NCBI GenBank assembly: GCA_015478665.1
Contig: JADMII010000012.1
Coordinates: forward strand, 13,202-77,201
DNA length: 64,000 nt
From: Dehalococcoidia bacterium
Lineage (GTDB): Bacteria > Chloroflexota > Dehalococcoidia > DSTF01 > JACRBR01
Direction of reading: 5' to 3'
Made by a program: the position numbers and the translations under genes
The notes under the pieces: model-generated
Seen by the model: only the letters and a program-made list of their open reading frames with translations
The model's database searches: none
Told to the model about the DNA's origin: nothing
Part shown: piece by piece, positions 29,571-64,000 of the stretch
Numbering within the stretch: the stretch's first letter is position 1
Layout: each line of letters starts with the position of its first letter

Positions 29571-31087
29571 TCGCGTCCGTCCTGTTCGACGAGCCGCCGC
29601 GCTTCGTCGGGGCCCCACGTGCCGGCGTCATAGAAGCGAAGCGGCGACGCGCCCTGCAGCCACGCGTCGAGCACCGGCGTCAGCAGCTCCCACGACGCCT
29701 CGACGCTGTCCCAGCGCGTGAACAGCGTCGAGTCGCCGAGCATCGCATCGAGCAGCAGGCGCTCGTACGCTTCCGGCGGCTCCACCCCGAACGACGAGCC
29801 GTAGCGGAAGTCCATGTTCACCGGACGGACGTCGGAGCGCGTGCCCGGCACCTTCGCGCCGAAGCGCAGCGAGATGCCCTCGTCCGGCTGGATGCGCAGG
29901 ACGAGCAAGTTCGCCGCCGGGTCGATGTTGTCGCCGCCCATCTCGCGGAACAGCTGAAGCGGCGGCTTCTTGAACGTGATCACCACTTCCGTCGCCCGCT
30001 TCGGCAGCCGCTTGCCGACGCGCAGATAGAACGGTACATCGGCCCAACGCCAGTTCTCGATCATCAGCTTCAGCGCAACGTACGTCTCGATCTCGGACGC
30101 AGGCGAGACGCCGTCCTCCTCGCGGTACCCGGGCACCTGCTGGCCGAGGATCGCGCCGGCCCGGTACTGCGCGCGCACCGTCGCCCGCCCGACGTCGCCG
30201 ACCGGCAGCATGGCGCGGAACACCTTCGCCTTCTCGTCGCGGACGCCGTCGCCGTGCAGCGACGCGACCGGTTCCATCGCCACGAGCGCCAGCACCTGCA
30301 TCAGGTGGTTCTGCACCATGTCGCGCAACGCGCCCGACTCCTCGTAGTAGCCGCCACGCCCCTCGACGCCTACGGTCTCCGCGACAGACACCTGGACGTC
30401 GTTGACGTAGCGCCGGTTCCAGATCGGCTCGAAGATGCCGTTGCCGAAGCGGAAGACGAGGATGTTCTGCACCGTCTCCTTCCCCAGGTAGTGGTCGATG
30501 CGGTAGATCTGGCGCTCGCGGAAGACGAGGCCCAGGCTCTGGTCCAGCTTCTTCGCGGACTCGAGGTCGCGGCCGAACGGCTTCTCCACAACGAGCCGCG
30601 CCCAGCCGCCGCTCGGGCTGCGCGAGAGGTTCGCCTCGCCGAGGTGGTGGGCGATCTCGGCGTAGGCGGTCGGCGGCGTGGCGAGGTAGAAGAGGCGGTT
30701 GCCGCCGGCGCCATGCGCGCTGTCTTCCTTCTTCAGCCGTTCGCCGAGTCGCTCGTAGCCGGGCATGTCGCCGAAGTCCGAGCTGACGTAGTGCAGCGAG
30801 CGCGCGAAGCTCTCCCAGATGTCGTCCTGCAGCGGCTCGCGCGAGAACTTCGCGACGGCGTCCTTCATCGCCGCACGAAACTGCTCGTCGCTCCAGCCGC
30901 GCCGGGCGAAGCCGACGACGGAGAAGCCGCCCGGCAGCAGCCGCTCGCGCGCGAGATTGTAGAGCGCCGGCACGAGCTTGCGCGCCGTGAGATCGCCCGT
31001 CGCACCGAAGACGACGAGCGCGCAGGCGTCTGGCGTGCGCGGAAGGCGCAGGCCGGCGCGCAGGGGGTTGAGGGTCGAGGTGGTCAC
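29555..31087 (-). CDS. zwf: Glucose-6-phosphate 1-dehydrogenase
   Basis: LVVFGATGDLTARKLVPALYNL and RIDHYLGKE are present. The GTG at 31087 overlaps the gnd TGA stop (GTGA). Confidence 0.85.
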   Translation of the reverse strand: MTTSTLNPLRAGLRLPRTPDACALVVFGATGDLTARKLVPALYNLARERLLPGGFSVVGFARRGWSDEQFRAAMKDAVAKFSREPLQDDIWESFARSLHYVSSDFGDMPGYERLGERLKKEDSAHGAGGNRLFYLATPPTAYAEIAHHLGEANLSRSPSGGWARLVVEKPFGRDLESAKKLDQSLGLVFRERQIYRIDHYLGKETVQNILVFRFGNGIFEPIWNRRYVNDVQVSVAETVGVEGRGGYYEESGALRDMVQNHLMQVLALVAMEPVASLHGDGVRDEKAKVFRAMLPVGDVGRATVRAQYRAGAILGQQVPGYREEDGVSPASEIETYVALKLMIENWRWADVPFYLRVGKRLPKRATEVVITFKKPPLQLFREMGGDNIDPAANLLVLRIQPDEGISLRFGAKVPGTRSDVRPVNMDFRYGSSFGVEPPEAYERLLLDAMLGDSTLFTRWDSVEASWELLTPVLDAWLQGASPLRFYDAGTWGPDEARRLVEQDGREWHRM

Positions 31088-32001
31088 GTCCGCTCCGCGT
31101 CCGCGGCCTTCACGGCATGCCCGCCGAACTCGTTGCGCAGCGCCGCCTGCACCTTCGCGCTGAACGACGCATCCTGGCGCGACGAGAAGCGCCGCATCAG
31201 CGAGAGCGTGATGATCGGCAGCGGCACATCCTGGTCGAGCGCCTCCTGGACGGTCCAGCGCCCCTCGCCGGAATCCTCCACGAAGCCGGCGATCGTTTCC
31301 AGCCGCGGGTCGCGCTCGAACGCGCGCTCCGCCAGATCGAGCAGCCACGACCGCACGACGGAGCCGTGACGCCAGACGTCGGCCACCTGATGCAGGTCGA
31401 TGGCGAAGTTCGACCCGGCGAGCAGCTCGAAGCCCTCGCCGTAGGCGGCCATCATCCCGTACTCGACACCGTTGTGCACCATCTTGACGAAGTGCCCGGC
31501 GCCACTGCGCCCGACGTGCGCGTAGCCATCCGGCGGCGCCAGCGTCTTCAGCACCGGCTCGACGAAGCCGACCGCGTCGTCCGAGCCGCCGACCATCAGG
31601 CAGTAGCCTTCCTTCAGCCCCCAGATGCCGCCGCTGGTGCCGGAGTCGACGTACTCGATGCCCTGCCCGGCGACGAGCGACGCGCGGCGCGTCGAGTCGT
31701 GGTAGTTCGAGTTGCCGCCGTCGATGAGCACGTCGCCCTTCGTCAGCAGCGGCAGCAGCTGCGCGATCGTCGAATCGACGGGGTCGCCGGCCGGCACCAT
31801 CATCCAGACGGCGCGCCGCGGCTGCAGCTCGTCGACGAGCGCGCCGAGCGACGCCGCGCCCGTCGCCCCTTCGGCCACCGACGCCGCGACCGCATCGGCG
31901 CTGAGGTCCGAGACGACGACGCGGTGGCCCCCGCGTAGCAGCCGCAGGGTCATGTTGGCGCCCATGCGCCCGAGCCCGATCATGCCGATGTCCATCGTCA
32001 T
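31084..32001 (-). CDS. gnd: 6-phosphogluconate dehydrogenase, short (~300 aa, decarboxylating) form
   Basis: IGMIGLGRMGANMTLRLLRGGH NAD(P)-binding start and 6PGDH-like body. The ATG overlaps the pgi stop (ATGA). Confidence 0.8.
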   Translation of the reverse strand: MTMDIGMIGLGRMGANMTLRLLRGGHRVVVSDLSADAVAASVAEGATGAASLGALVDELQPRRAVWMMVPAGDPVDSTIAQLLPLLTKGDVLIDGGNSNYHDSTRRASLVAGQGIEYVDSGTSGGIWGLKEGYCLMVGGSDDAVGFVEPVLKTLAPPDGYAHVGRSGAGHFVKMVHNGVEYGMMAAYGEGFELLAGSNFAIDLHQVADVWRHGSVVRSWLLDLAERAFERDPRLETIAGFVEDSGEGRWTVQEALDQDVPLPIITLSLMRRFSSRQDASFSAKVQAALRNEFGGHAVKAADAERT

Positions 32002-33692
32002 CCTCCCCGCACGCCGGCGCCTGCGACCGCGGACGCGACGGCGCGCCGCAGCATCGCGAGGCCGGCGTGCATATCGGCGCCGAGATGCACGCGGAGCGCC
32101 GGCCGACCGTGGTCGTGCAGCGCCTGCAGGTCGCCGATGGCCTGCGCGCGCTTCAGCTGGCCGAAGGTGTACGTCTGACCGGGGATGGCGATGTCATGAA
32201 GGTCGCTGGAGGTGACCTGCAGGAAGACGCCCTTCGCCGGGCCGCCCTTGTGCAGCTGCCCCGTCGAATGCAGGAAGCGCGGCCCGTATCCCAGCGTCGT
32301 CGCAACGCGCCACGTATCACGCACGTCGCGACGAACCGCTTCGAACGCGTCGTGCGCCGCCGCGTCCGCCTCGACGTAGGCCGTGATGGCGAAATAATCT
32401 CCGGGCGCGAGTTGCCTCAGCAGCTCCGCGATACTGCCCTCGACGTCCAGATCGACTGCTCCGGCGCCGGCGCGGACGGCGACCGGCGCGTCGCCCAGGC
32501 CGGCGACGTCGAGCGTCTGCGTCCGCGCCAAATCGGCGAGGACGCGCCTCGTGTTGTCCTTCGACTCCTGCACGTTCGGCTCGTCGAACGGGTTGATCTC
32601 CAGCACCCGTCCGGCGACGGCGACGGCGAACTCCCAGCGGAAGAACTCCCGCCCAAGATCGTACGGGTCATCGAGGTCGACCGTGATCACCGGCTGCCCC
32701 TCACCGAAGAGGGCGCCGGCGATCGCGTCGAGCTCCGCGTTGTCGCCGCCTTCCAGCCGCATCCGCACGAACGCGCGGTCGTCGGCGTAGTGCCGCGGCG
32801 ACGCGAGCGGCTCGCCCGCTACCGGTACGATGCCGGTGCCAAGCTTGCCGGTGCTCTCGGCGATCAGCTGTTCGACCCAGAGCCCGAACGCGGCGATCGC
32901 CGGCGTCGCGATGAAGGTGCACTTGTCGCGGCCGCCGCGCGCGAGCTCCCCCAGGGCGGCTCCGAGGCGCAGCGCGTCGCTGCCCGCGAAGCGTCCGGCA
33001 TCGGCCGCGCGCTTCGCCGAGTCGAGCAGCCGGGCGACGTCGACGCCAGTGGCGGCGGCGGGCGCCAGACCGAAGTACGAGAGCGCGGAGTAGCGGCCGC
33101 CGATGTCGCCCGGGTTGGTGAAGACGCGGCGGAACCGGTGCTCGCGCGCAAGGTCCTGCAAGGGCGTGCCGGCGTCGGTGATGGCGACGAAGTTGTCGCC
33201 CGCTGCGTCGCCCTTCGCCTCGGCGACGAGAGCCTGGAAGTACGCGAAGAGGGACAACGGCTCGAGCGTGGTGCCGGACTTCGACGAGACGAAGAACAGC
33301 GTCCGCGCCGGATTGATCTTCCGCGTGACGCCGAGGATCGTCGCCGGATCGGTCGTATCGAGCACATACAGCAGCGGCCAGCCGCTGCGATGCGGGATGC
33401 TCTGGCGCAGGACTTCCGGCGCGAGCGAGCTGCCGCCCATCCCCACCAGCACGCAGGCGTCGAACTGCCCGCGCACGTCTTCGCCGAACGCGCGCAACTC
33501 AGCGACCTGGTCGCGCATCCGCGACGCGACATCGAGCCAGCCGAGGCGGTTGGCGACCGACGCCTGGCGCGCCGCGTCGTCGCCCCAGAACGCCGGGGAA
33601 CGGGACCATAGCGCGGCCGGCGCGCCGGCGGCAGTCAGCTGCTCGATGCGCCGCTCGACGCCGCCCGCGTGTTCGCCGAGCTCGAACTTCAT
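31998..33692 (-). CDS. pgi: Glucose-6-phosphate isomerase
   Basis: PGI motifs are present (VLVGMGGSSLAPEV, FVSSKSGTTLE). The ATG at 33692 overlaps the tal stop (ATGA). The 5' portion of the track ORF is a shadow. Confidence 0.8.
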   Translation of the reverse strand: MKFELGEHAGGVERRIEQLTAAGAPAALWSRSPAFWGDDAARQASVANRLGWLDVASRMRDQVAELRAFGEDVRGQFDACVLVGMGGSSLAPEVLRQSIPHRSGWPLLYVLDTTDPATILGVTRKINPARTLFFVSSKSGTTLEPLSLFAYFQALVAEAKGDAAGDNFVAITDAGTPLQDLAREHRFRRVFTNPGDIGGRYSALSYFGLAPAAATGVDVARLLDSAKRAADAGRFAGSDALRLGAALGELARGGRDKCTFIATPAIAAFGLWVEQLIAESTGKLGTGIVPVAGEPLASPRHYADDRAFVRMRLEGGDNAELDAIAGALFGEGQPVITVDLDDPYDLGREFFRWEFAVAVAGRVLEINPFDEPNVQESKDNTRRVLADLARTQTLDVAGLGDAPVAVRAGAGAVDLDVEGSIAELLRQLAPGDYFAITAYVEADAAAHDAFEAVRRDVRDTWRVATTLGYGPRFLHSTGQLHKGGPAKGVFLQVTSSDLHDIAIPGQTYTFGQLKRAQAIGDLQALHDHGRPALRVHLGADMHAGLAMLRRAVASAVAGAGVRGG

Positions 33693-34832
33693 GCGGCGCT
33701 TGCCTGCCGGATCTTCTCCGCCTTCGCCGCCGTCGTCGCCGTGATCTGATCGAACGACTTCGAGAATGCCTCGACGCCATCGCGCTGCAGCTCGTCGGTG
33801 ATTTCCGTGAGCGAGATGCCCTCGGCCTCGAGGTCGGCGAGCACCTGGAGCGCACCGTCGTAGTCCGCATCGATCGTGCGGCGGACGACGCCGTGGTCGC
33901 GGAAGGCATCGATGGTCTGCGGCGGCATCGTGTTCACCGTGTCCGGGCCGATCAGCTCCTCGATGTACTTGACGTCGCTGTAGGCCGGGTTCTTCGTGCC
34001 GGTGCTGGCCCAGAGCGGCCGTTGGATGCGGGCGCCGGCGGACTGCAGCTTGCGGAAGCGCTCGCCGGCGAAGACCTCGCGGAAGCGGCGATAGGCAACC
34101 TTCGCGTTGGCGACGGCAACCGTGCCGCGCAGGCCTTCGAGCTTCGCCCGCTGCTGCGCGTCGCTGGCTGCGGCCAGCTTCGCCTCGATGCGTTTGTCGG
34201 CGCTCGTATCGACGCGGCTGACGAAGAAGCTGGCGACGGAGTTGAGACCCGCGATGTCCTCCCGCGCCTCGGCGCGCCGCTCGAGGCCGCGCAGGTACGC
34301 CTCCATCACGCGCTCGTAGTACTCGACGGCGAAGAGCAGCGTAATGTTGATGTTCACGCCAGCGGCGATGCACTCCTCGATCGCCGGGATGCCGGCGTCC
34401 GTCGCCGGGATCTTGACCATCAAGTTCGGCCGGTCGATCGCCTTCCACCAGCGCTTCGCTTCGTCGACCGTCGGCTGCGTCTCGAACGCCTTCTCCGGCG
34501 ACACCTCGATGCTGACGAAGCCGTCGCTGCGCGCCTGATCGAAGACCGGGCGCAGGATGTCGCAGGCGTGCCGAATGTCGGTGATCGCGAGCTGCTCGAA
34601 GAGATCGCGTGGCGGCACGCCCGTGCGCACGAGCTCGGCGATCTGCACGTCGTAGTCGTCGCCGGCCTCGATTGCCTTCTCGAAGATCGTCGGATTCGCC
34701 GTGACGCCGCGGATGCCGTCGTCCGCGACGTAGCGCGCCAGGCCGCCGTCCTCGATCATGTTGCGGCGGATGAAGTCGAGCCACGGCGACTGCTGCTGCT
34801 GCGCGAAGAGTTCCACCATCGGATTAGCCATT
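33689..34832 (-). CDS. tal: Transaldolase
   Basis: [16 protein letters not shown]...[12 protein letters not shown]. The ATG at 34832 follows AGAAGGAGAATATCA, and the rpiB stop lies inside codons 2-3. Confidence 0.85.
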
Positions 34833-35297
34833 GATATTCTCCTTCTCTCCGGTGTAGCGCGACTCGATCGCCAGCACCTTGTTGAGACGCCGCACGTGCC
34901 GTTCTTCGCCGGAGAACCGGGCGCCAACGAACGCGCCCACCAGCTCGATCGCCAGCGCCGGCCCGATCACGCGCGCGCCGAGCGTCAGGATGTTCATATC
35001 GTCGTGCTCGACGCCCTGGTGCGCCGAATACGTGTCGTGGCAGACGGCCGCGCGCACGGCCCGGATCTTGTTTGCCGCCACCGACGCGCCGACGCCGCTG
35101 CCGCAGATCAGCACGCCGCGCTCGCAGCCCCCGCCGCGCACGGCCTCGCCGGCGGCCTGTGCATAGTCCGGGTAGTCGACCGGCGCCTCGCTGTCCGTGC
35201 CGAGGTCGACGACATCGTGCCCGAGGCGCCGCAGCTCGTCGATGATCGGCTGTTTCAGCGGGAAGCCGGCGTGATCCGCGGCGACAGCGATGCGCAT
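34824..35297 (-). CDS. rpiB: Ribose-5-phosphate isomerase B
   Basis: [12 protein letters not shown]...[16 protein letters not shown]. The ATG overlaps the tkt TGA by 1 nt. Confidence 0.85.
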
Positions 35298-37327
35298 CAG
35301 CGTCGCGCCCCGCTGAACTGCCCGACGAGCGCCAGCACGCGCTCCGTGACCTTGTCGGCCGTGAAGCCGAGTCGCTCCATCACCGTCTCTCCCGGCGCCG
35401 AGGCGCCGAAACGGCCGTCGATGCCGATGCTGTCGCCGCCATCGCCGACCCAGCGCTGCCAGCCAAGCGTCACGCCCGCTTCGACCGAGAGCCGCGCCTT
35501 CACCGCGGGAGGCAGGACGTCGTCGCGGTACGCCTGGTCCTGCGCTTCGAAGAGGTCCCACGCCGGCATGCTGACGACGCGCGCCCGCACGCCGCGCTCC
35601 GACAGCCGCGACTGCGCCGCGACGGCGATGCTCACCTCCGAGCCGCTGGCGATGATGACGGCGTCCGGCGTGCCGCTGCCGGGCGCGTCGCTGACGACGT
35701 AGGCGCCGCGAAGGAGGCCGCGCGCGCCGCCATCGGCCGTGCCCGCGAGCTGCGGCAGCGCCTGGCGCGACAGCGCGAGTAGCGTCGGCCCTTCGCGCTC
35801 GATGGCGACCTTCCACGCCATCACCGTCTCGTTGCCGTCGGCGGGGCGGATCACCGTCAACTCGGGGATCGCGCGCAGGGCCATCAGATGCTCGATGGGC
35901 TGGTGCGTCGGCCCGTCTTCGCCGAGGCCGATGCTGTCGTGCGTGAAGATGAAGATGCTGTGGTACTCGCTCAGCGCCGCCAGCCGGATGGACGGCCGGC
36001 AGTAGTCGCTGAAGGTGAGGAACGAGGCGCCGAACGGCAGCACGCCGCCGTGCGCCGCCATGCCGTTCACCGCGGCCATCATCGCGTGCTCACGCACGCC
36101 AAAGTAGATGTTGCGCCCGCCCGGCGCGTCCGCGCTCATCACGCCCTGGTCGCGCATGTCGGTATCGTTCGACCCGCCGAGATCCGCCGAGCCGCCGATG
36201 AGCAGCGGCACCCGTCCCGCCAGCGCGTTCAGCGCCTGGCCGGACGCCGCGCGCGTGGCGATCGGCTTGTCGGCCGGCGTGTACGCCGGCAGCGACGCAT
36301 CCCAGCCTTCGGGGAGGTCGCCGGCGAACGCGCGGGCCAGCGCCGCCGCCTCGTCGGGGTGGTCCTTCGCGTACGTTGCCAAGCGATCGTCCCAGGCGGA
36401 CTGCGCTTCGGCGCCGCGCGCGAGCGCCTCGTGGAAGTGCGCCAGCGCCTCATCCGGGACGAAGAAGCTCTTGTCCTCCGGCCAGCCGTAGAAGCGTTTG
36501 GCCGCGGCGACCTCCTCGGGGCCGAGCGGCGAGCCATGCGCCTTGCTGGAATCCTGCTTGTTGGGGCTGCCGTAGCCGATGTGCGTGTGCGCGACGATCA
36601 GCGACGGCCGCTCGTGATCCTGCTGCGCCATCCTCAGGGCGCGGTCGACCGCCTGAGCGTCCATCCCGTCGATGCGCTGCACCTGCCAGCCATAGGCCTC
36701 GAATCGCGTGCCGACGTCCTCCGTGAACGAGAGCGACGTCGGCCCGTCGAGCGAGACGAGGTTCGCGTCGTACAGGCAGATCAGCTTGCCGAGCTGCTGG
36801 TGGCCGGCGAGCGAAGCCGCTTCCGCCGCGACGCCCTCCATCATGTCGCCGTCGCTGGCCATCACGTACGTGTAGTGGTCGATGACGGCGGCGCCGTCGC
36901 GATTGAACGTCGCTCCGAGGAAGCGCTCCGCCATCGCCATACCGACGCTGTTCGCGAAGCCCTGGCCGAGCGGCCCCGTCGTCACCTCGATGCCCGGGAT
37001 GAGGCCGTGCTCGGGGTGGCCGGCGGTCGGGCTCTGCCACTGCCGGAACGACTTGATGTCGTCGAGCGTGATGCCCGGGTAGCCGGTGAGGTAGAGCATG
37101 CTGTAGAGCAGCATCGATGCATGGCCCGCGGAGAGCACGAAGCGGTCACGATCCGGCCAGGCGGGGTCGGCCGGATTGTGCTTGAGGAAGCGGTCCCAGA
37201 GCACATACGTCATCGTCGCCGCGCCCATCGGCATGCCGGGATGCCCGGAGTTCGCCTTCTGCACGGCATCGATGGACAGCGTGCGGATGGTGTTGATGCA
37301 CAGCTCGTCGAGGCGGGCGTCGGTCAT
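35297..37327 (-). CDS. tkt: Transketolase
   Basis: [27 protein letters not shown] and the TPP-binding regions; 676 aa. Confidence 0.9.
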
Positions 37328-37485
37328 GGTCGGCCCTTTCTTGCAGGCGCGATGATCTCGTCGACAAGGGGAAGAGGCGCTTGGGTGCAGCGTGATGGCG
37401 GAGGGGGCGCGGGCGCCGCATGGCGGGCTCGCCGGGTGCGGTCGACAGGCATCATGCCTCTTTCCGGTTGCGCGAGTTCCATCCC

Positions 37486-37496
37486 CAGTATAGCGC
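37486..37496 (-). promoter_or_regulatory. Candidate -10 element (TATACT) about 160 nt upstream of tkt
   Basis: The reverse strand reads GCGCTATACTGGGG. No strong -35. Position relative to the start of the seven-gene operon is appropriate. Confidence 0.2.
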
Positions 37497-37573
37497 GGGT
37501 AGGCCGAATCGCTGGCGCCGCGCGGAGGGCGACGAGGCTGCTCCCGGAACCGCGCCGGCGGTGGGCCGGGCGC

Positions 37574-45075: not shown

Positions 45076-45097
45076 CGGACGGCGAGGGTAGAACGAC

Positions 45098-46678
45098 GTG
45101 GTAGAAGACGCGCGGATGACGGCGGTCGAGGCCGCGCCTCGCGGCGAGCGGCAGGCGCCCGGCGCGCCGCCACCGTTCGTGCGCGACCGCGGGGCCGGCG
45201 GCGATCTGGCGGCGACGCTCGCCCGCTGGATGAGCTTCGACCTGACGCGCCCGCTTGCCTTCGCCGTGCTGGCGCTACTCTACGTCGCCAGCCGGCTGCC
45301 GTTCATCGATAACGGCTACGGGACGAAGCCGGATGCCTGGCGCATCGCGCTCACGGGCTACTGGCTCTGGGACCGGCACGCGTTCTACCCGTCGCGGCTG
45401 CCCGGCTACCCGATCCCCGAGCTGTCGTACGCGGCGCTCTTCAACGGCAGCTGGATCGCCACGAACTCACTGACGATCGCCGTGGCGCTGGTGGGCGTCT
45501 GGTTCTTCGCGCGCATCGTCCGCGAGCTGAAGCTCCCGAATCCGGCGCTGCTCGTCGTCGGCTTCGCGTTCATGCCGCTGCTGTGGATCAACAGCATGAA
45601 CACGATGGACTACGCCTGGGCGCTCACCTTCATCCTCGGCTCGTATTACTTCCTGCTGCGCGACAACGACCTTGCGGCCGGCCTCATGCTCGGGCTGGCA
45701 GTCGGCTCGCGCCTGCCGTCCGCGGCGATGCTCGTCCCGTTCGTCGCCTACATGTGGCGGTCGGGCAAGCGCGACGAGATCCGCACCTTCCTCGTCTCGG
45801 TGATCGCCGTCGCGATGGTGGCGTTCTCGCCGGTCATCTGGAAGTACGGGCCGAGCTTTCTCAACTTCTACGACGCGAAGGTTGGCTATCGCGACGTGAT
45901 CCGGCTGCTGGCGAAGGATTCGCTCGGGCTCGCCGGCACCGCCGCACTGATCATCGCCACGCTCGTCTCGCTGCCGCGGCTGGCGAAGCTTCCCGGCGAC
46001 TTCGTGCGCGACAAGGACGTCATGACCTGGGTGCTGGCGATCGTCGTCGCGGCCGCCGTCTTCTTCCGCCTGCCGCACGAGGCCGCGTACCTGATCCCGC
46101 TCTATCCATTCGCCTACCTGCTCATCGGCAAATACTTCCAGCGCTGGGTGCTCGCCGGCGCCGTCGCCATCTTCCTGCTCTCCGGCTTCGTCGACTTCAC
46201 GACGACGACCCATCAGGTAAGCCTGGCATCGGTCAGCCGCGTACGCGTCGGCGAAGGCATGCTGCTCTCGAACCGCAACACCCAACGCGCGCAGATGACG
46301 TTCACCCGCCGAGTGGAGAACCTGGCGGTGCCGAACAACTCCGTCGTCATCGTCGGCTTCGTCTACCCCGAATTCGCCGTCTCGAACCGCAACCGCCTCA
46401 GCGTCGGCCTGCTCGAGAAGGACACGTCGGCGATCAGCCAGCTCTCGGACAAGGGCAAGACCTTCGACGCGACGCGCCGCATCACGTACGTCTGGCTGCT
46501 GACGTGGCAGGACTTCGAGGCGTATCGCAGGCAGGGCGCCCGCATCTACTACACGGTCGACGCCGACCGCAGCACCGAGGCGCTGTACGGCTACCGGCCG
46601 GGCCTCTTCGGCGGGACGCTGATCGATACGGGGAGGACGCCATCCGGCGAGCCCGACACGAACCGTACCCAACGGTAG
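45098..46678 (+). CDS. Polytopic membrane protein, GT-C-fold glycosyltransferase-like (PMT_2/ArnT/DUF2029-like)
   Basis: About 12 predicted TM helices with aromatic-rich loops; 526 aa. No soluble domain. Confidence 0.45.
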   Translation: MVEDARMTAVEAAPRGERQAPGAPPPFVRDRGAGGDLAATLARWMSFDLTRPLAFAVLALLYVASRLPFIDNGYGTKPDAWRIALTGYWLWDRHAFYPSRLPGYPIPELSYAALFNGSWIATNSLTIAVALVGVWFFARIVRELKLPNPALLVVGFAFMPLLWINSMNTMDYAWALTFILGSYYFLLRDNDLAAGLMLGLAVGSRLPSAAMLVPFVAYMWRSGKRDEIRTFLVSVIAVAMVAFSPVIWKYGPSFLNFYDAKVGYRDVIRLLAKDSLGLAGTAALIIATLVSLPRLAKLPGDFVRDKDVMTWVLAIVVAAAVFFRLPHEAAYLIPLYPFAYLLIGKYFQRWVLAGAVAIFLLSGFVDFTTTTHQVSLASVSRVRVGEGMLLSNRNTQRAQMTFTRRVENLAVPNNSVVIVGFVYPEFAVSNRNRLSVGLLEKDTSAISQLSDKGKTFDATRRITYVWLLTWQDFEAYRRQGARIYYTVDADRSTEALYGYRPGLFGGTLIDTGRTPSGEPDTNRTQR

Positions 46679-46980: not shown

Positions 46981-48387
46981 TTACAACCGCCGCCGCAGCG
47001 TCAGGTAGACGCCTGAGCCGGCGCCGACGACCATGATTCCCAGCACCGCGATGATCGCGATCGTGATGCCGCTCGCGCCGCCACTGCCGGCGGCGCCCGC
47101 AGCGGCGGTCCGGGTGGCGTCGCCCGCGGCAGGGGCGGCCGTCGTCGTCGCGCCGGTCGTCGGCGCCGCGACGCGCGCCGGCAGCCCGACGGACTGGCGC
47201 CATGCGTTCTCGAGGCCGAGCTGGTCGAAGCCGTACACCTTGCGGTAGGCATCGTCCGGCGTCGAGCCATCCTTGAACGTCCGCAGCAGCTCAGCGAACT
47301 TCTCCGCGCCGCGCGCATCGACCAGGTACTTCACGATCGAGCCCGCTTCGCCGTAGAACAGGCCGACCGTGTCGCCGGTGTCGGCGGCGGCCGACGAGCC
47401 GAGCTGGAGAATCGAGAGGGCGCTGTTGCTCCGGATCGCGGCGGCGAGCGCCTCCTGCTGGCTGGCGAGCGGCTGCTTCTGCGAGAAGACGGAGATGCCT
47501 TCGGCCAGCCAGCTGGTGATGCCGTACGGCCCCTTCGTCGCCTGGCTGGTGACGATGTGCGCGACCTCGTGCCGCGTGGTATCGAGCGTATCGACATCAG
47601 TGGACACCATCGCCGTGTCCGAATAGACGACCTCGCCGAGGATGGTGACGCCGCCGCCGATGCTTCCGGGAGCGATCGCCGGCTGCATCTCCTCGGCCGT
47701 CGCATAGAGGAAGACCTTGACCGGGAACGTCACCTGCGTCTGTTCCAGCGCGCCGACGTCCCTCAGGGTCTGCGCCGCGGCCACGAGCACGGCCTGCGCG
47801 TCGGCCTGCGAGCCTGCGTAATAGTACAGCGTGACGTTGGCGCTCTTGAGCGTCTTGAAGGTGAAGCGCGTGTCCTCGTGGACGTAGAGCTTGTCCTGCG
47901 TCACCAGCCGGTCGCCGGACGCGTCGGTGATCTCCCAGTGGTAGGTGATGTTGGCGCCGGGGATGATGACGATACCCTGCCCGCTCGTCAGCGAGAAGCT
48001 GCACCGCACGGTGCCCGTGCCGGTGCAGTCGGCGATCGCCGTCGCGCCCGTCCCGTCCGGCGCGAGCGTGTACAGCAGGCGCACCTCCTTCGGCGCCGCC
48101 GGCGCCGTGAAGCTGACGCTGAAGGTGACGCCACGCGGGAAGTTGTTTCGCGCCTGGTCGCTCGTCACGACGATCGGCGAAGACTGCGCCCGCGCCGTCG
48201 TGCGCAGCGGCCCGCCGGGCATGATGAGCGCCACCGCCAGCACCACCGCCACTGCCACGACGGCCCGCGCGCAATCAGCAGCGCTCCGCCGGCCGCATGC
48301 AGCGCCGGGCCTCGTCGAGCCTCCCGCCTGCCGCCTCCACCGGCGCCGAAGGGGTGCGGCCGCCTCTCGTACCCACCGTGTGAGCAC
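46981..48387 (-). CDS. Secreted peptidase MA-like zinc metalloprotease with C-terminal membrane anchor
   Basis: Signal-like VVAVAVVLAVALIMP, an HExxH site (TRHEVAHIV), a Thr/Ala-rich linker and a C-terminal TM (ITIAIIAVLGIMVVGAG). The GTG start lies 4 nt after the prfB stop. Confidence 0.5.
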   Translation of the reverse strand: MLTRWVREAAAPLRRRWRRQAGGSTRPGAACGRRSAADCARAVVAVAVVLAVALIMPGGPLRTTARAQSSPIVVTSDQARNNFPRGVTFSVSFTAPAAPKEVRLLYTLAPDGTGATAIADCTGTGTVRCSFSLTSGQGIVIIPGANITYHWEITDASGDRLVTQDKLYVHEDTRFTFKTLKSANVTLYYYAGSQADAQAVLVAAAQTLRDVGALEQTQVTFPVKVFLYATAEEMQPAIAPGSIGGGVTILGEVVYSDTAMVSTDVDTLDTTRHEVAHIVTSQATKGPYGITSWLAEGISVFSQKQPLASQQEALAAAIRSNSALSILQLGSSAAADTGDTVGLFYGEAGSIVKYLVDARGAEKFAELLRTFKDGSTPDDAYRKVYGFDQLGLENAWRQSVGLPARVAAPTTGATTTAAPAAGDATRTAAAGAAGSGGASGITIAIIAVLGIMVVGAGSGVYLTLRRRL

Positions 48388-48390
48388 CGC

Positions 48391-50928: not shown

Positions 50929-51342
50929 ATGGGCACGGTGAAGCTTCCTCGGATGTTCGTCCTCCTGATCTTCGCGGCGCTGTTGGGCGCGGCCTGCGGC
51001 GTCGCCTTCTCGGCGCCGAAGCGCAACCGCACGTTGTTTCAGTCGCTGAGCGTGACCGGCGAACTGCGCACGGGCCAGCCGCTGACCGCGGCGCTCGCGT
51101 ACCAGCAGTACCTGCCGATCGAGATCGACGTGCGCTGCGAGGTACGGCAGTCGAAGAAGCTGATCAAGCCCATCGGCCAGATGAAGGTGCCCGCGTACCC
51201 GAACGGCAGCCCGACCGTGACGCCGTTCCCCGGCAACATCTCCTACGATTTTACCATCGACAAGGCAGGCGACTACTTCGTCGAGTGCTACACGCCGAGC
51301 GACAAGGACAACGCGATCCGCTATCCGTTCAGCGTAGATTGA
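50929..51342 (+). CDS. Small secreted protein, hypothetical
   Basis: Signal peptide MFVLLIFAALLGAACGVAFS; codon usage is coding-like. Confidence 0.3.
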   Translation: MGTVKLPRMFVLLIFAALLGAACGVAFSAPKRNRTLFQSLSVTGELRTGQPLTAALAYQQYLPIEIDVRCEVRQSKKLIKPIGQMKVPAYPNGSPTVTPFPGNISYDFTIDKAGDYFVECYTPSDKDNAIRYPFSVD

Positions 51343-51424
51343 GCGAGGAAGCACGCCGCTTGCAGCACCGCTGAACGGAGGATCCGGCGTCGAAGCATGT
51401 TCTCGCGGCGAAGAAGGGCTGACG

Positions 51425-51793
51425 ATGATGACGACGGAACACGACTTCGGTTGCGACGAGCAGCACACGGCACGCCAGCGCTGCAACGCGAACGCCTCGG
51501 TCGTCGCCGCCGCAGCGCCAGCGGCGGGAAGCGCCGAGATGCAGCCCCCCGAGCGGCGGGAAGCTGAGCCGGCGCGCCGCGCGGACGCTGCCGCCCTGAT
51601 GCCGACCGCCGGCATCGAGCCGCCGGAGCAGATGTTCGGGCCGGATGTTGACGCGCATGGCGCCGGCCTCGCCGATGGGCCGCTGGAGAGCATCGACACC
51701 AGCCGGCTGCCGACGCTGCCGCTGCTCGGCCTGGTGCTCGTCGCCATCGTGAGCATCGCGGTGGCGTGGCGCCTGGTCCGCGGCCAGCGATAA
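51425..51793 (+). CDS. Hypothetical small protein with C-terminal TM
   Basis: ORF with a C-terminal TM segment LPLLGLVLVAIVSIAVAW. Confidence 0.15.
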   Translation: MMTTEHDFGCDEQHTARQRCNANASVVAAAAPAAGSAEMQPPERREAEPARRADAAALMPTAGIEPPEQMFGPDVDAHGAGLADGPLESIDTSRLPTLPLLGLVLVAIVSIAVAWRLVRGQR

Positions 51794-57620: not shown

Positions 57621-60600
57621 CTACTCCGTGAGACGGCGGTAGAGCGTCGGCAGGCGCCGCGGGAGTTGTTCGATGTCGGCGACGACTTCGTAGCCCATGT
57701 CTTCGCACATCTGGCCCAGGTAGTCGTGCCCTTCCTTGTCGACGGTGAGCGCGAACGGCGTGATGCCTTTGCGGCGCGCTTCCTGCAGCGCCTGCTTCGT
57801 GTCGTGGATCGCGTACTCCTTCTCCGTCCGGTCTCGGCCGTAGCCGTGGTCCTGCGGGCGCCCGTCGGACACGAGCATGAGGATCTTCACCTTGGCGTCG
57901 TACGCGTCGAGCTTCGCCGTCGCGTGGCGGATCGCCGGGCCCATGCGAGTCGAACGGATCGGTGAGACCTTGTCGATGCGCTTCTTCACCTTGTCGGTGA
58001 ACTGCTCGACGAGATCCTTGATCACATAGAACTCGACGTTGTCGCGCCCGTAGCCGCTGAAACCGTAGATGCCGTAGCTGTCGCCGATCGTCTCGAGCGC
58101 CTTGATGAAGAGCACGGTGCTCTCCTTCTCCAGGTCGATGATCCGCTTCGGCGGCGCGATCGACTGGGAGGCGCGCCGCTGCGCGAGCCACTGGAAGTAC
58201 TTGCGCGGGTCGTCATCGAAGTCCTCGTCGTCCATGTACTTCTGCTTGCGCTTCTCGATCTCTTCGTCGGTCGATGCGCTCATGTCGAGCAGGAAGGCGA
58301 CCGCGACGTCGCGTTCGACCTTGTTCCGGCGCCAGTAGATCTTGTCGGTGTAGCTGTGTCCCGCTTTGCGTTCGATCGCGTAGTCGATGACCGCATCCAG
58401 GTCGAACTCTTCGCCGTCGAGCAGCTTCTTGATCTTGCGGAAGAGCTCCGGCTTCAGCAGCTCGAACTGCTTGCGGGTCTCGTTGACCAGCGCGGCGTGC
58501 TCGCGCAGCGTGTCGTCGAAGTAATCCGCGCCGCCCTCTTCGAGCGGGCGCTCCTGCACCCGGCACCAGCGCGGCTTGTAGTCCGCCGCCCGGAAGTCCC
58601 ACTCGTCGTAGTAGAACGACTTCACTTCGACCGGCGGCTCTTCGTTGTCCTCGCCGTCACCGTCGGCTGCCGGCTGGCCGTCCTTGAGCTCCTTGTTCTG
58701 GTCGCCGATCGGCGTGCCGGCTTCCTTCTCGAGATTCGAGAGGAACAGCCCGAGCGTCGACGCCAGGTCGCCCTCCGCCATCGCCCCGACCGTGATCTCG
58801 ACGCTCTTCTCCAGCAGCTCCTTCAGCTGCTCCGGCGAGAGCGGCGAGAGCTCGCCGTTCTGCTCGACCTCGCCGTCTTTCAGCCGCAGCCGCATCAACA
58901 GCTGCACCAGCTCCGGCTTGAAGTCGCCCCGGAAGTCCACCTGCTCCGGGCTCTCATACGCCTGCTCCGCCCCCTGCGGCATCGGCGGCTGCGCGTCGTC
59001 GTCGGCGGGCCCCGGCGGCGACATCATCAGCTGCATCGACTCTTCGCTCACCGTCTCCCAGTCCAGCTGACTGAGCTCCTCCGGCGCGATGTTCGGCACC
59101 CGCGCGACGACGTCGTACAGCGACAGCGTCGCTTCCGCCGCGTCCTCGACGCGCGCGCCCTTCTCGCGCACCGCCCACAGCGTCTGCACGGCCTGGTGCA
59201 GCACCGGTTGCAGCGCCGCCGGCCAGACCATCGTCTGTGCGCCGTCCAGGCTCGCGCGCACAAGGTTCTCGACGAGGGCCTGGCGCAGCGGCAGTGCGTT
59301 CGGCGCCAGCCGCGCCTCGAGCTCGTTCTCCTGCGTGCGGCCCCAGGCGCGGCGGATGCCGCCGTACTCGCGCCGCACCAGCGTGTCGATGCGCGTGTCT
59401 TCAGTCAGCGCGAACAGGTCCGATGCCAGTTGGCGGTCGTCGAACAGGTCGAAGAAGCGCTCCATGTCCGTCATCGGCCCTGTCGCGCGCTGCGAACCCT
59501 TGCCCTCGGCCCGTCGCTCCTCCTCGCGCTCGCCGCGCCGCGACGGCAGCACGGCGGCATCGCGGCTGAAGCGGAACAGGAAGCTGCCGAACTCCAGGTG
59601 CGCCGCCTGATGCGTCGCGAAGACCTTGTACACGGAGAAGTTCTGGTCGCGGTCGATGAACTCTTCGACGAACTCCGGCAGGTAGACCGTCGTGCCCTCC
59701 GTGCTCGGCCGGTTCTCGCTCACCCAGCCGATGCCCTTCTCCGCCAGGTACGACACCGGGTTGATCGAGACGTTCGCGCCGGTGAGCGCCTTGCAGTACA
59801 GCCGCAGCACTTCGCCGACGCGGCTCAGCTCGACCCGCGACGACAGCTGCTGCAGCACCTCCTCGCCGCGGCCGGATTCCAGGCGGAAGTACGCCTCCCC
59901 GCCCTCGACGTTCTGCTCGAGGATGCGGTGCCCCGCGGCGTGCCAGTTCGCCAGCTCGGCGATCCGAATCCGCTTCAGCACTTCGGGCGAGCTCTTGAGG
60001 AACTCCATCGCCGCCGTCGGCGACGCCACCGCCAGCTCCTCCGCCATCGAGAGCAGGTCGTGGTGGGTCTGCTCCGGCACCGTCGCCAGCGCCGACGCCC
60101 CCTCGGCGAACAGGCCGTAGGCGTGCCGGCCGCTGCGTCGCGCCACCGCCGCCGCCAGCGCCAGGAAGCGGCCGCGCGCCGATGCCTCGATCGGCGCCAG
60201 CAGGTTCGGCGAGCGCTCGAAGCAAATCCGGACGTCGGCCCACGATGCTTCGCCGACGGCCGTCGCCAACGTCAGGAACGGCGCCCGGTCCGGCTTCGCC
60301 AGCGACGCGAAGAGGTGCGGCGCCGCGTCGAGGCACGCCGTCGCCAGCTCGTACGAGCGCTCGGCGACGGACTCGACGAGCGCCACCAGCCGCGCCATCT
60401 CGGCGAGCGGCAGCGCGGGCAGCAGCTTCGGGCCGGCGCCGAAGTACACCGTCGCCAGCGAGATCGACTTCCAGTGCCCCTTGTACAGCCGTTGCCCCAG
60501 CGCCGCCCACTCTGTGAGCCGCCGCTCATCGAGGAACGGTACGGACGCCGGGCTCGCCCTGAAGTAGGCGCCGGCGACGACCGAGGAGTACTCCGCGAGG

Positions 60601-60869
60601 TCGCGGCCGGCGTGCGCCCAGCGCCGAAACGACGGCGTCGGCAGCAGCCGCATCACCTCACCGGAGACCCCCACGTAGTCGATCGCCGCTTCCCACGACC
60701 GCAGCGAGTGAGCGGCGAGCGCGACGCACTCGTCGGTCCAGGCGCGGAAGTCCGCTTCGGCGAGCGCACCCCGCAGCTCGCCTGCGACGCGCCGGAACTC
60801 CGCCGCGAGCTGCGGCGAATGCGTCGCGAGCCTCGCCTCGACCTCCGTCAGATACGCATCGTCGATCAT
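57621..60869 (-). CDS. Large VWA-domain protein, CbbO/NorD-like (MoxR-ATPase partner type), orphan
   Basis: The C-terminal ~230 aa form a VWA with MIDAS LLDMSASTD (DxSxS). The N-terminal ~800 aa are uncharacterised and contain HQAAHLEFG. 1082 aa. Confidence 0.6.
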   Translation of the reverse strand: MIDDAYLTEVEARLATHSPQLAAEFRRVAGELRGALAEADFRAWTDECVALAAHSLRSWEAAIDYVGVSGEVMRLLPTPSFRRWAHAGRDLAEYSSVVAGAYFRASPASVPFLDERRLTEWAALGQRLYKGHWKSISLATVYFGAGPKLLPALPLAEMARLVALVESVAERSYELATACLDAAPHLFASLAKPDRAPFLTLATAVGEASWADVRICFERSPNLLAPIEASARGRFLALAAAVARRSGRHAYGLFAEGASALATVPEQTHHDLLSMAEELAVASPTAAMEFLKSSPEVLKRIRIAELANWHAAGHRILEQNVEGGEAYFRLESGRGEEVLQQLSSRVELSRVGEVLRLYCKALTGANVSINPVSYLAEKGIGWVSENRPSTEGTTVYLPEFVEEFIDRDQNFSVYKVFATHQAAHLEFGSFLFRFSRDAAVLPSRRGEREEERRAEGKGSQRATGPMTDMERFFDLFDDRQLASDLFALTEDTRIDTLVRREYGGIRRAWGRTQENELEARLAPNALPLRQALVENLVRASLDGAQTMVWPAALQPVLHQAVQTLWAVREKGARVEDAAEATLSLYDVVARVPNIAPEELSQLDWETVSEESMQLMMSPPGPADDDAQPPMPQGAEQAYESPEQVDFRGDFKPELVQLLMRLRLKDGEVEQNGELSPLSPEQLKELLEKSVEITVGAMAEGDLASTLGLFLSNLEKEAGTPIGDQNKELKDGQPAADGDGEDNEEPPVEVKSFYYDEWDFRAADYKPRWCRVQERPLEEGGADYFDDTLREHAALVNETRKQFELLKPELFRKIKKLLDGEEFDLDAVIDYAIERKAGHSYTDKIYWRRNKVERDVAVAFLLDMSASTDEEIEKRKQKYMDDEDFDDDPRKYFQWLAQRRASQSIAPPKRIIDLEKESTVLFIKALETIGDSYGIYGFSGYGRDNVEFYVIKDLVEQFTDKVKKRIDKVSPIRSTRMGPAIRHATAKLDAYDAKVKILMLVSDGRPQDHGYGRDRTEKEYAIHDTKQALQEARRKGITPFALTVDKEGHDYLGQMCEDMGYEVVADIEQLPRRLPTLYRRLTE

Positions 60870-61286
60870 GTCTCAGTGTATCGAGCGGCCGTCGTTAACC
60901 CACGCTTCGATACACATCAAGGACGGGACATGGCCGAACGCAGGCCGTCGGCGGTCACGAGATAACGAGCGGTGCGATCGCCCCATCGCCGCCGTCGCGC
61001 ATCGGACGGGAACTGGACCGAACGGTGAGGCGTAGACCATGGCTGAGCCGCCGGTCAGACTTGCACAAAAGGTGGAGTAGAAACGGAGGCAAGACCAAAC
61101 CCGGTCGGACTCTCCCAATGAGTGGTACAGAGATCGGGGGCAGGTCGTATGTCGACGTCGTCGTCGCGTAGCTCGTGTAGGGGCGGCCGTGCCGGTGTAC
61201 TGCGTGGCAGTGCTCGTGCGCGCGGCGGGGTTGCTCGTCTTGATCGTCTCGAGAGACTCCCGTCGGCGGTGCGAGCCAGCAGCGAA

Positions 61287-61560
61287 GTGAGGCGAACGGC
61301 GATCACGATCGGAGTCGACGCACACAAACGCGTCCATCAGGCCCTCGCGCTCGACGCGGACGGTCGCGAGAGCGGCCGGTGGCGCGGGCCGAATTCTCGA
61401 GCCGATTGGCGCCGCTTGCACCTCTGGGCCGGCGGGGAGCATGTCTGGGGGATCGAGGGCGCGTGGAGCCACGGGCGTGGTCTTGCGCAGGCGGCGGTCC
61501 GATCGATGGAGGGAATCTCATGGATGCCGAGAATAGCGCGATACGATGGTGGCGGTCACG
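61287..61560 (+). pseudogene. IS110-family transposase N-terminal fragment (truncated)
   Basis: AITIGVDAHKRVHQALALDADGRESGRWRGPNSRADWRRLHLWAGGEHVWGIEGAWSHGRGLAQA matches the DEDD N-terminal domain of IS110 transposases (IGIDxHKxxH...W.IE...G). The rest of the transposase is absent. Confidence 0.45.
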
Positions 61561-61789
61561 AGAACGAGCGCGAGGAAGCGACGAGAGCGATTCGTCCGTC
61601 CATGATCCCGAGGACGATCAAGAGTGCAAGCGCAACGCAGATTGACATCACCGATGCGAACGTCTGATTTACTCGGCGCATTGAGGATGAGACCCACGCT
61701 CCGAAGCCAACGGTGGCGATAACAAAGAGATTCTTGTCCTTTGTCGCTCCTGCTAAAACAATGAACGCAAGGCTGGATGCGAGCAGCAA
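61556..61789 (-). CDS. Hypothetical small hydrophobic protein in low-GC patch
   Basis: 77 aa with two TM-like segments, inside the ~300-bp lower-GC region 61540-61860. Confidence 0.15.
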   Translation of the reverse strand: MLLASSLAFIVLAGATKDKNLFVIATVGFGAWVSSSMRRVNQTFASVMSICVALALLIVLGIMDGRIALVASSRSFS

Positions 61790-61975
61790 GAGGTCGAAGG
61801 CCTGTTGTTGCCGCGTCTTAGGACATCTGGTAGGCCATTCAGGGCAGAGACACTACACTAGACGCGCCGGCCGGGAGCGATCGCGGCGCTGGCGCGGACG
61901 GCGCATGCGTCCCTCGATTGATCTCGGGCAGGTCGCGCAGAAGTCGCGAGCATGATCGTTTGATGAGGACGGACG

Positions 61976-62613
61976 ATGTCTCTCAAATTGTCGGTGGCGC
62001 TGGCTCTGGCAGTCACGGTGACGTTTGCCTCGCAAGCGCGGGTTGGTATCGCGCAAGAGAAGCCGGGCCTCGGCGGGTCGGCTGGGATTTCGGGCACGGT
62101 GACGTTCACGGATGGAAGGCCGGCGGCGGGTCGGCCCGTCGAGTGGCGACCTCGTGGCGATCCGAACGGTGGAAGCACGCTCCAGACGGACAACATTGGG
62201 TCGTATGCAATTCAAGGCTTGAAAGACGGCGAATATTTCGTCGGATACTTTCTACCGAGCCGTGTGCCACGCGATAAGAACCCGAACGTCGAGAAGGCTC
62301 CCGATGTCAATTCACCGGCATTTGATGACCTCGGTGTGCCGCTAATCCGGCGAGTATTGATTGTGAACGGAACATCGGTCAAAGGCGTGGACTTCGTTAT
62401 CACAGACACAGGAAACGAAAGCTTCGCCGGCCCTGACAGTGGAGGCGCTGCTCAGCCAAGTCTTCCGGCAACTGGTGCTGGTGCGGAAGCTCGCCCAGCC
62501 GACGCGGCCGCACCTGGCCGGCGCCAGGCGCGGCCGCAGCAGCTGTCGTCGGCATCATCATCGGTGCCAGTTCGATGGCGCTTGGAACGAAGTTGAGGCG
62601 TCGCAACGGCTAG
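61976..62613 (+). pseudogene. LPXTG-type cell-surface protein (CarbopepD_reg-like domain), sorting signal interrupted by frameshift
   Basis: Signal peptide MSLKLSVALALAVTVTFASQA, then GTVTFTDGRPAAGRPV (carboxypeptidase-regulatory-like), then LPATG at 62462-62476. The expected hydrophobic anchor and charged tail (AAAVVGIIIGASSMALGTKLRRRNG*) are encoded in a different frame, ending at 62613. Confidence 0.45.
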
Positions 62614-62761
62614 CACCGGGCTGCGCTACACCCCGAAGCGGGGGCAGTGCGCCGGGGAACGACGGTGTTCAACCGGAGCGCCGGTCGTCGCATCGCCGCC
62701 GTGGCACTCGCCGGCACCGCGACCCTATCGCCGATCCTGCCGTCCTCCGCCGCTGCAAACC

Positions 62762-64000
62762 CTACGCCGCGCGCGGCGGACGGCGGCGTGCGAGAGCGGC
62801 GGCGCAGGGCTCCGGCTCGCCGACCCAGAATCCCTGCGCGTAGTCGACGCCGTACTCCTCCAGCAGGCGCAGCGTCGCGTCTTCGGTGACGAACTCGGCG
62901 ATGGTGCGCTTGCCCAGTCCCGCCGCGACGGCGACGATGGCGCGCACGAGGTGCTGGTCCGTCGGGCTGCGCGGCAGCTCGCGGACGAAGCTGCCATCGA
63001 TCTTCAGGTAGTCGACCGGCAGGTTCTTCAGATGCGAGAACGACGAGAAGCCGACGCCGAAGTCATCGAGCGCGAAGCCGCAGCCGATCGACTTCAGCGT
63101 GCGGACGAAGGTCAGCGCCTCCTCGAGGTTCGCGATGGCGGCGGTCTCGGTCACTTCGAGGATCAGCCGCGCGGGGTCGACGCCGCGGCGCGCGAGCTCG
63201 GCCTGGATCATCGGCAGCAGCTGCGGGTCGGCGAACGCCTTGCCGGAGAGGTTGACCTCGAAGCGCAGCTCGTTCTCGGCGTGTGCCGCCAGCAGGCCGA
63301 TCGCCTCCCGCACCACCCAGCGGTCGATGTCCTGGATCATGCCGGTGCGTTCGGCAAGGTCGAGGAAGGCGCCGGGGAGCACGACGTCCTCGCCGCCCTC
63401 ATCGAGCCGCAAGAGCAGCTCGTAGCGGTCGACGGCGCCATCGGCGAGGCGGAGGATCGGCTGGGCGTAGAGCACGAAGCGGTCGCGCTCGATCGCCTCG
63501 CGGATGCGCTGGGTCCAGCCGATGCGTGACTCGATCTGCGCCTGCCAGTCGCCATCGGGCACGAAGACGCTGTAGCGGTTGCGGCCTTCTTCCTTCGCGC
63601 GGTACATCGCCAGGTCGGCGCGCGACAGCACGTCGTCGCTGCGCTCGCTGCCCTCGGGGAAGAGCGCGACGCCAATGCTCGCCGTGATGCGCAGCGGCGC
63701 GCCGGCGACGAGGAAGGTGTGGTCGCGGATGCGGTCGAGCAACTGCGCGGCGATCTCGGCGGCGGACTGGGCGTCGGTGCGTGGCAGGAGCACAGCGAAC
63801 TCGTCGCCGCCGAGTCGAGCGACGACGTCGCTGCTGCGCACTTGCTGGCGGAGCAGTTCGGCGAGGCCGGTGAGCAGGTCGTCGCCGGCGCGATGGCCGC
63901 GGCTGTCGTTCACGTCCTTGAACTGGTCGAGGTCGAGGAAGAGCAGCGCGCCGTCGACGCCGTAGCGCCGCGCCTCGCGGAGCTCCCGGTCGAGCTCCTC
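62762..64000 (-). CDS. GGDEF-EAL domain protein (diguanylate cyclase/phosphodiesterase), 5' partial
   Basis: GGDEF (ARLGGDEFAV) and EAL (YAQPI, EVTE, DDFGVG) domains. The reading frame stays open to the window end. Confidence 0.8.
   Translation of the reverse strand, partial: EELDRELREARRYGVDGALLFLDLDQFKDVNDSRGHRAGDDLLTGLAELLRQQVRSSDVVARLGGDEFAVLLPRTDAQSAAEIAAQLLDRIRDHTFLVAGAPLRITASIGVALFPEGSERSDDVLSRADLAMYRAKEEGRNRYSVFVPDGDWQAQIESRIGWTQRIREAIERDRFVLYAQPILRLADGAVDRYELLLRLDEGGEDVVLPGAFLDLAERTGMIQDIDRWVVREAIGLLAAHAENELRFEVNLSGKAFADPQLLPMIQAELARRGVDPARLILEVTETAAIANLEEALTFVRTLKSIGCGFALDDFGVGFSSFSHLKNLPVDYLKIDGSFVRELPRSPTDQHLVRAIVAVAAGLGKRTIAEFVTEDATLRLLEEYGVDYAQGFWVGEPEPCAAALARRRPPRAA

Follow-up and report, generated by a model that had tools for sequence, protein, structure and literature searches.

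In the window (the whole 64,000-nt stretch of a Dehalococcoidia MAG that was analyzed here, with a G+C content of 69.3%), a short gene encodes a protein with an LPATG sorting motif, and the membrane anchor expected behind such a motif can be read only in another frame. Is this gene a frameshift pseudogene, is it broken by a sequencing error in a GC-rich run, or does it contain a slippery site (the three options that the initial annotation had left side by side), and does it imply a sortase elsewhere in the genome?

The Encoded Protein

The ORF as encoded (61976-62596, + strand) starts with ATG and specifies a protein of 206 aa; the same sequence is entered at NCBI as MBF6600509.1 (IVW36_08370), a “hypothetical protein” of a Dehalococcoidia MAG. 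Inspection of the sequence revealed a GAGGA Shine-Dalgarno-like motif 6 nt 5' of the ATG (61965-61969, +) and a hydrophobic N-terminus that is a predicted Sec signal peptide (MSLKLSVALALAVTVTFASQARVGIAQ, 61976-62056, +); the latter ends at a family-invariant Ala-Gln (A26 and Q27 are invariant across the 6 closest homologues). It is followed by a single transthyretin-like or CarboxypepD_reg-like beta-sandwich domain (62078-62410, +; residues ~35-145), which was assigned using PF13620, AlphaFold2 and Foldseek. PF13620 matches the window protein with E=5.6e-5 and 23.9 bits, below the gathering score of 32.3 bits, and precomputed matches to PF13620 are present for most homologues. In the AlphaFold2 model, based on a 15-sequence alignment, residues ~35-145 form an all-beta sandwich of seven to eight strands with pLDDT >90, with disorder in the signal peptide and in the last 60 residues. 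Foldseek matched the model to PDB structures of the staphylococcal UafA and SdrD B regions, Gram-positive pilins, the carboxypeptidase D/M regulatory domain and also the beta-sandwich of intradiol dioxygenase (E 6e-5 to 4e-3, prob ~1.0); the TM-scores were low because the query includes the disordered ends. For the window copy, the beta-sandwich assignment is weak by sequence and well supported by the AlphaFold2 prediction, and the ORF had been described correctly, coordinates included, in the initial annotation (signal peptide, beta-sandwich and LPATG).

A Gly/Pro/acidic spacer separates the beta-sandwich from the LPATG motif (62462-62476, +, frame 0), which aligns with the LPx[T/S/A]G of all homologues and fits the sorting-motif rule LP.T[GAND] (PMC12617251). 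Up to its stop codon, frame 0 reads SLPATGAGAEARPADAAAPGRRQARPQQLSSASSSVPVRWRLERS; the tail after LPATG is AGAEARPADAAAPGRRQARPQQLSSASSSVPVRWRLERS, a hydrophilic sequence rich in Arg and Ser. When the window was searched by tblastn with the 28 homologues described below, a single locus and no paralogue were found.

The Anchor in the -1 Frame

The -1 frame (codons at 62461+3k) reads SSPSRRGRTWPAPGAAAAAVVGIIIGASSMALGTKLRRRNG up to a stop codon at 62611-62613, and its end (RTWPAPGAAAAAVVGIIIGASSMALGTKLRRRNG, finishing at 62613) has the appearance of a sorting-signal C-terminus. It comprises a Trp codon (62515-62517, +) that matches the Trp located just before the membrane helix in most close homologues, a hydrophobic anchor (AAAAAVVGIIIGASSMALG, 62530-62586, +) readable in this frame only, and a basic tail, TKLRRRNG, with the stop codon (62587-62613, +). 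The best 19-residue Kyte-Doolittle mean is 1.97 for this tail vs. ~0 for the tail as encoded. Of the 858 ORF ends of the window (stop-delimited ORFs of 35 aa or longer, six frames, whole window), 3 have an uncharged hydrophobic 17-mer and, behind it near the stop, three or more R/K; this tail is one of them.

Among just these 3 helix and basic-tail ORF ends of the window is also the ORF at 51338-51790 (+), which has no Pfam match and ends in SRLPTLPLLGLVLVAIVSIAVAWRLVRGQR. Separately, a Peptidase_MA_2 protein (46984-48390, -) ends in APTTGATTTAAPAAGDATRTAAAGAAGSGGASG-ITIAIIAVLGIMVVGAGSGVYL-TLRRRL, i.e., a C-terminal helix with a basic tail, and carries an APTTG pentapeptide ~60 residues before its end; this C-terminus could be a simple membrane anchor or a second, non-canonical sorting signal.

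The Homologue Family

Word-indexed searches and an exhaustive profile search yielded 28 full-length homologues of ~180-230 aa, several of which are representatives of 50%-identity clusters. All 28 carry, in one frame, the motif LPx[T/S/A]G, a linker of 8-20 aa (with R-x-W, i.e., Arg-x-Trp, in most close homologues), a hydrophobic helix of ~20 residues and an Arg-rich end. In members that are more distant, LPxTG is replaced by LPxAG or LPxSG, variants that are known in staphylococcal proteins. Because all of the homologues are intact in one frame, the gene in the window belongs to a small family built like sortase substrates and has itself been frameshifted. Its hydrophobic segment and positive tail are out of frame with LPATG, whereas both are in frame in 28 of the 28 homologues; the window copy is therefore a disrupted, not a functional, LPXTG-type sortase substrate. 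The initial observation that anchor and basic tail lie in a frame other than that of LPATG was thus borne out by the homologues.

The profile search retrieved 6209 proteins at E <=1e-3, most of them giant and with 5-37 domain copies, and the stand-alone form of ~200 aa accounted for ~20 among the best 150 of the 6209 matches, which indicates that the passenger is a common module of surface proteins and that small anchored proteins of this kind make up a rare family. The source is known for four family members, all from Dehalococcoidia MAGs, namely, the window copy and the copies on contigs L002, L004 and L005 (the L004 and L005 proteins are identical). A scan of genome contigs found one true relative, the intact copy on L002, and a scan of metagenome contigs for further loci found none.

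The family falls outside any specific Pfam or NCBIfam model. TIGR01167 (LPXTG_anchor), a short model subject to harsh HMMER filters, matched 2 of 15 family members with E 0.13 or worse and, under the same filters, gave no match to the frame-repaired window protein at E up to 10; a scan of NCBIfam for curated sorting-signal models returned sub-threshold matches only.

Position and Size of the Lesion

A family HMM was built from the 28 homologues with the window sequence left out. The protein as encoded scored 235.0 bits, and the restoration of one base raised the score to up to 246.1 bits (a gain of 11 bits). Depending on the restoration site, scores formed a plateau of 245-246 bits for one base added after 62484 to 62508, were 241-242 bits at 62515-62535 (the GC-rich run to which the break had been attributed initially) and were 238.7 bits or less beyond 62539; among the other indel sizes scanned, none was better than restoring 1 or 4 nt. 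Furthermore, the G-R-T-W of the -1 frame just before the helix aligns with the R-x-W of the homologues. The HMM scores and the R-x-W alignment together point to 62484-62514 (+) as the likeliest lesion zone, with a net loss of 1 nt (or 4 nt) and a CCC run at 62494-62496. In tblastn searches with the homologues, the alignments go no further than 62476-62479, just past LPATG (26 of the 28 homologues listed).

Judged from these sequence comparisons, the lesion more likely lies 5' of the Trp codon than in the run at 62520-62545, with a margin of ~4 bits at which the exact base is not nameable. The initial annotation was thus right that the frame is broken, and its placement of the break in the GC-rich run GCGCCAGGCGCGGCCGCAGCAGC is probably ~20-40 nt too far downstream. 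A chance motif, as a further candidate, was ruled out by the homologue alignment, the HMM gain and the background rate of ORF ends given above.

The frameshift region also contains a 9-nt direct repeat, GCGGCCGCA, at 62504-62512 and 62530-62538 (26 nt apart). Both copies code for Ala-Ala-Ala, each in a different frame (frame 0 for the first, -1 for the second).

A Genuine Mutation or an Artefact

The sequencing run SRR12886061 stems from a biofilm of the Marsberg copper mine, and its data were produced from a Nextera library with MiSeq v3, assembled with metaSPAdes 3.14.0 and binned with MaxBin (PMC7849705). An independent Logan contig of this run agrees with window positions 60462-63016 without a single mismatch across 2555 nt. 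The two assemblies were made by different assemblers from the same Illumina reads; their identity argues against an assembler artefact, and the shared reads leave room for a systematic read error or for the choice of the majority variant in a mixed population. As to the error option of the initial annotation, a pure assembler error is therefore unlikely, and what is left of this option is a read-level error or a minority variant.

In its remaining form, the artefact explanation holds that the gene is intact and that a single base is missing from the reads, or from the consensus, for a region of the metagenome bin that is strain-mixed, GC-rich and possibly low in coverage. It is favored by the origin of the MAG from one MiSeq library that also underlies both assemblies, by the MaxBin binning, and by the state of the -1 frame tail, which shows no further damage (no stop, a perfect helix, RRR) and aligns with the homologues to its natural stop. 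The undamaged tail is compatible with either a very recent mutation or an error. The agreement of the two assemblers speaks against an artefact, as does the rarity of indel errors in Illumina reads; the longest homopolymer in the lesion zone is the CCC run.

The other genes of the window also argue against it. Most of the ~50 other ORFs have full-length Pfam matches, each inside one ORF (among them PFK, RNase J, FtsK, two ABC exporters, an oligopeptide transporter, G6PD, transketolase, transaldolase, a release factor, endonuclease V and FtsH); a few matches are partial (PGI, 6PGD and GH20). Judged from these Pfam matches, no second frame break was noticed among the ~50 ORFs, and the sole break falls in the sole atypical islet, beside an IS scar.

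This islet (60873-62650, 1.8 kb) has a G+C content down to 0.52-0.57 and no third-position GC signal. The codon-position G+C of the LPXTG gene is 0.67/0.57/0.60, i.e., its GC3 is 0.60 vs. 0.93 in both flanking genes, which encode a VWA protein (57621-60869) and a GGDEF-EAL protein (62762 to beyond 64000). The 1.1 kb 5' of the gene (60873-61975) show no coding signal; they contain, directly 5' of the frameshifted gene, a remnant of the N-terminal (DEDD) domain of an IS110-family transposase (61254-61529, +, within the 181-aa ORF 61122-61667; PF01548 E=0.0064; tblastn against annotated IS110 transposases E 5e-6 to 1e-3) that lacks the C-terminal half. The atypical islet and the IS scar agree better with an accessory gene that was acquired recently and is now decaying than with a random error.

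Taken together, we consider the locus to be probably a frameshifted copy within a small, uncharacterized family of ~200-aa proteins, in which a lineage-specific mutation, and not a recoding signal, has disrupted a gene that seems to have been acquired recently. That the frameshift is genuine, i.e., present in the DNA of the organism rather than in the reads, is likewise probable, as we infer from the above; an error or a minority allele at the locus is a possibility of clearly lower weight, and the artefact explanation as set out here is somewhat unlikely, although stronger than the alternatives that follow. With the homologues in frame and the Logan assembly identical, the pseudogene option of the initial annotation (a pseudogene or an anchorless variant) is the best reading.

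The intact homologues differ from their surroundings in codon usage, too: on L004 (10001-10609), GC3 is 0.76 vs. ~0.9 for most neighbours, and on L002 (1116-1739), it is 0.72 vs. 0.92 in one neighbour and 0.61 in the other. It may be a general trait of the ~200-aa family to be mobile or poorly matched to the codon usage of its hosts.

Elsewhere in the window, a contiguous pentose-phosphate cluster (28464-37573, -) encodes, by rising coordinate, OpcA, glucose-6-phosphate dehydrogenase, a short-form 6-phosphogluconate dehydrogenase, a PGI-like protein, transaldolase and transketolase. A very large ORF (16227 to ~19800, -) combines PMT_2 glycosyltransferase and PA14 domains, and its stop-to-stop frame continues into the adjoining ABC-transporter gene. 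The ORF at 45092-46675 (+; 528 aa) has a strong coding signal (GC3 0.93) and no Pfam match at E <=1e-4.

Comparison with Known LPXTG Proteins and the Sortase Question

With LPXTG proteins such as SdrD, UafA and the Gram-positive pilins, the window protein shares a signal peptide and a beta-sandwich passenger and, after frame repair, an LPATG that lies in the final 50 residues and precedes a hydrophobic segment and an Arg-rich tail. Unlike the classical LPXTG proteins, members of the family have a single small domain and a total length of ~200 aa, and unlike classical LPXTG signals, they have a longer linker between motif and helix (8-20 aa, often with R-x-W). The host class also sets the family apart from monoderm LPXTG systems, since it is Dehalococcoidia, for which our searches found no studies of sortase anchoring. 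As for the passenger, the PF13620 carboxypeptidase regulatory-like domain is the best Pfam match and carboxypeptidase D/M is among the structural matches; the window domain stands alone, forming part of neither a repeat array nor an enzyme.

Anchorless alleles of LPXTG proteins that arose by a premature stop codon or a frameshift exist, e.g., the truncated, secreted InlA of Listeria monocytogenes. As in such alleles, a surface protein that is intact in other respects is deprived of its retention signal by a point lesion upstream of or within the sorting signal; in contrast to InlA-type alleles, the window copy keeps its LPATG and loses the helix and tail alone. One could go further and regard the family as defining a sorting-signal variant (LPx[T/S/A]G, a long R-x-W linker, a helix and an RRR tail) that is restricted to Dehalococcoidia or Chloroflexota and read by a sortase that has escaped study, with the window copy as a natural anchorless allele (a secreted form or a switch). 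We regard this as doubtful, and the frameshifted, decaying gene copy described above is the reading that we retain.

A sortase was not found in the window: the motif [TSA]LxTC, which covers the sortase active site TLxTC, is absent from all window ORFs of >=70 aa, and the sortase model PF04203 had no match in the ~55 window ORFs scanned. Near the homologues, no sortase is encoded within 10 kb on L004/L005 or on the 3.1-kb contig L002. Genes for housekeeping sortases usually lie apart from those of their substrates, and the lack of a sortase gene in the window or beside the homologues is therefore not evidence of its absence. A sortase elsewhere in the genome, as the initial annotation had expected, is a reasonable supposition. 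On sortases in Dehalococcoidia/Chloroflexota, the texts checked (PMC1586193, PMC12617251) contained nothing relevant, and publications naming both sortase and Dehalococcoidia were, judged by their titles, unrelated.

Insertion and Programmed Recoding

The frame could also have been broken by an insertion instead of a deletion, i.e., by 26 nt bounded by the GCGGCCGCA repeat. The spacing of 26 (= 2 mod 3) agrees with the observed shift, and the excision of one repeat copy with the spacer yields LPATGAGAEARPADAAAAAVVGIIIG, a clean reading of motif, helix and tail. However, this repair scores 239.6 bits vs. 246 for the one-base restoration (6.5 bits worse) and deletes the R-x-W element of most close homologues, and a 9-nt GC-rich repeat of Ala codons is unremarkable at 69% G+C. 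We consider such an insertion improbable.

Least probable of all, and hardly to be expected, is that one gene gives rise to anchored and anchorless forms by programmed -1 ribosomal frameshifting or transcriptional slippage, because, although the shift is -1 and both frames are open for >30 codons across the junction, the shift is absent from all 28 homologues (so nothing is conserved on which selection could act), no X_XXY_YYZ heptamer occurs in frame 0 at 62477-62520 (all in-frame heptamers inspected) and the longest homopolymer is 3 nt (CCC). Programmed recoding is thus not supported, and the slippery-site option of the initial annotation was dropped. The preferred explanation is a net loss of 1 nt (or 4 nt) in a gene that seems to have been acquired recently.

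Proposed Mechanism and Biological Meaning

The following scheme draws on the architecture of the family and on established knowledge of sortase substrates, from which both sortase processing and its physiological consequence are extrapolated. The members would consist of a Sec signal peptide, a transthyretin-like beta-sandwich, a Gly/Pro/acidic spacer, LPx[T/S/A]G, a linker, a membrane helix and an Arg-rich tail. Intact members would be exported in a Sec-dependent manner and held in the membrane as precursors by the helix and the basic tail; a sortase would then cut between Thr and Gly of the sorting motif and join the Thr carboxyl group to an amine of the cell envelope. Descriptions of the best-known Dehalococcoidia say that these bacteria have no peptidoglycan wall. 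With a net one nucleotide lost, likeliest within 62484-62514, translation of the window copy would leave the anchor frame, and the product, with its hydrophilic Arg/Ser tail and no retention signal, would not be displayed on the surface but released or degraded.

LPXTG genes with frameshifts or truncations are common, and the feature itself is ordinary: the observation was correct, and an ordinary inactivating mutation is the most likely cause. The GenBank record MBF6600509.1, entered as an intact hypothetical protein of 206 aa, should be flagged as frame-disrupted. The locus illustrates clearly how a compositional islet can contain an IS scar together with a decaying acquired gene, and the small, uncurated LPXTG-type family to which this gene belongs, found in uncultured Dehalococcoidia, hints at sortase-type surface display in this class.
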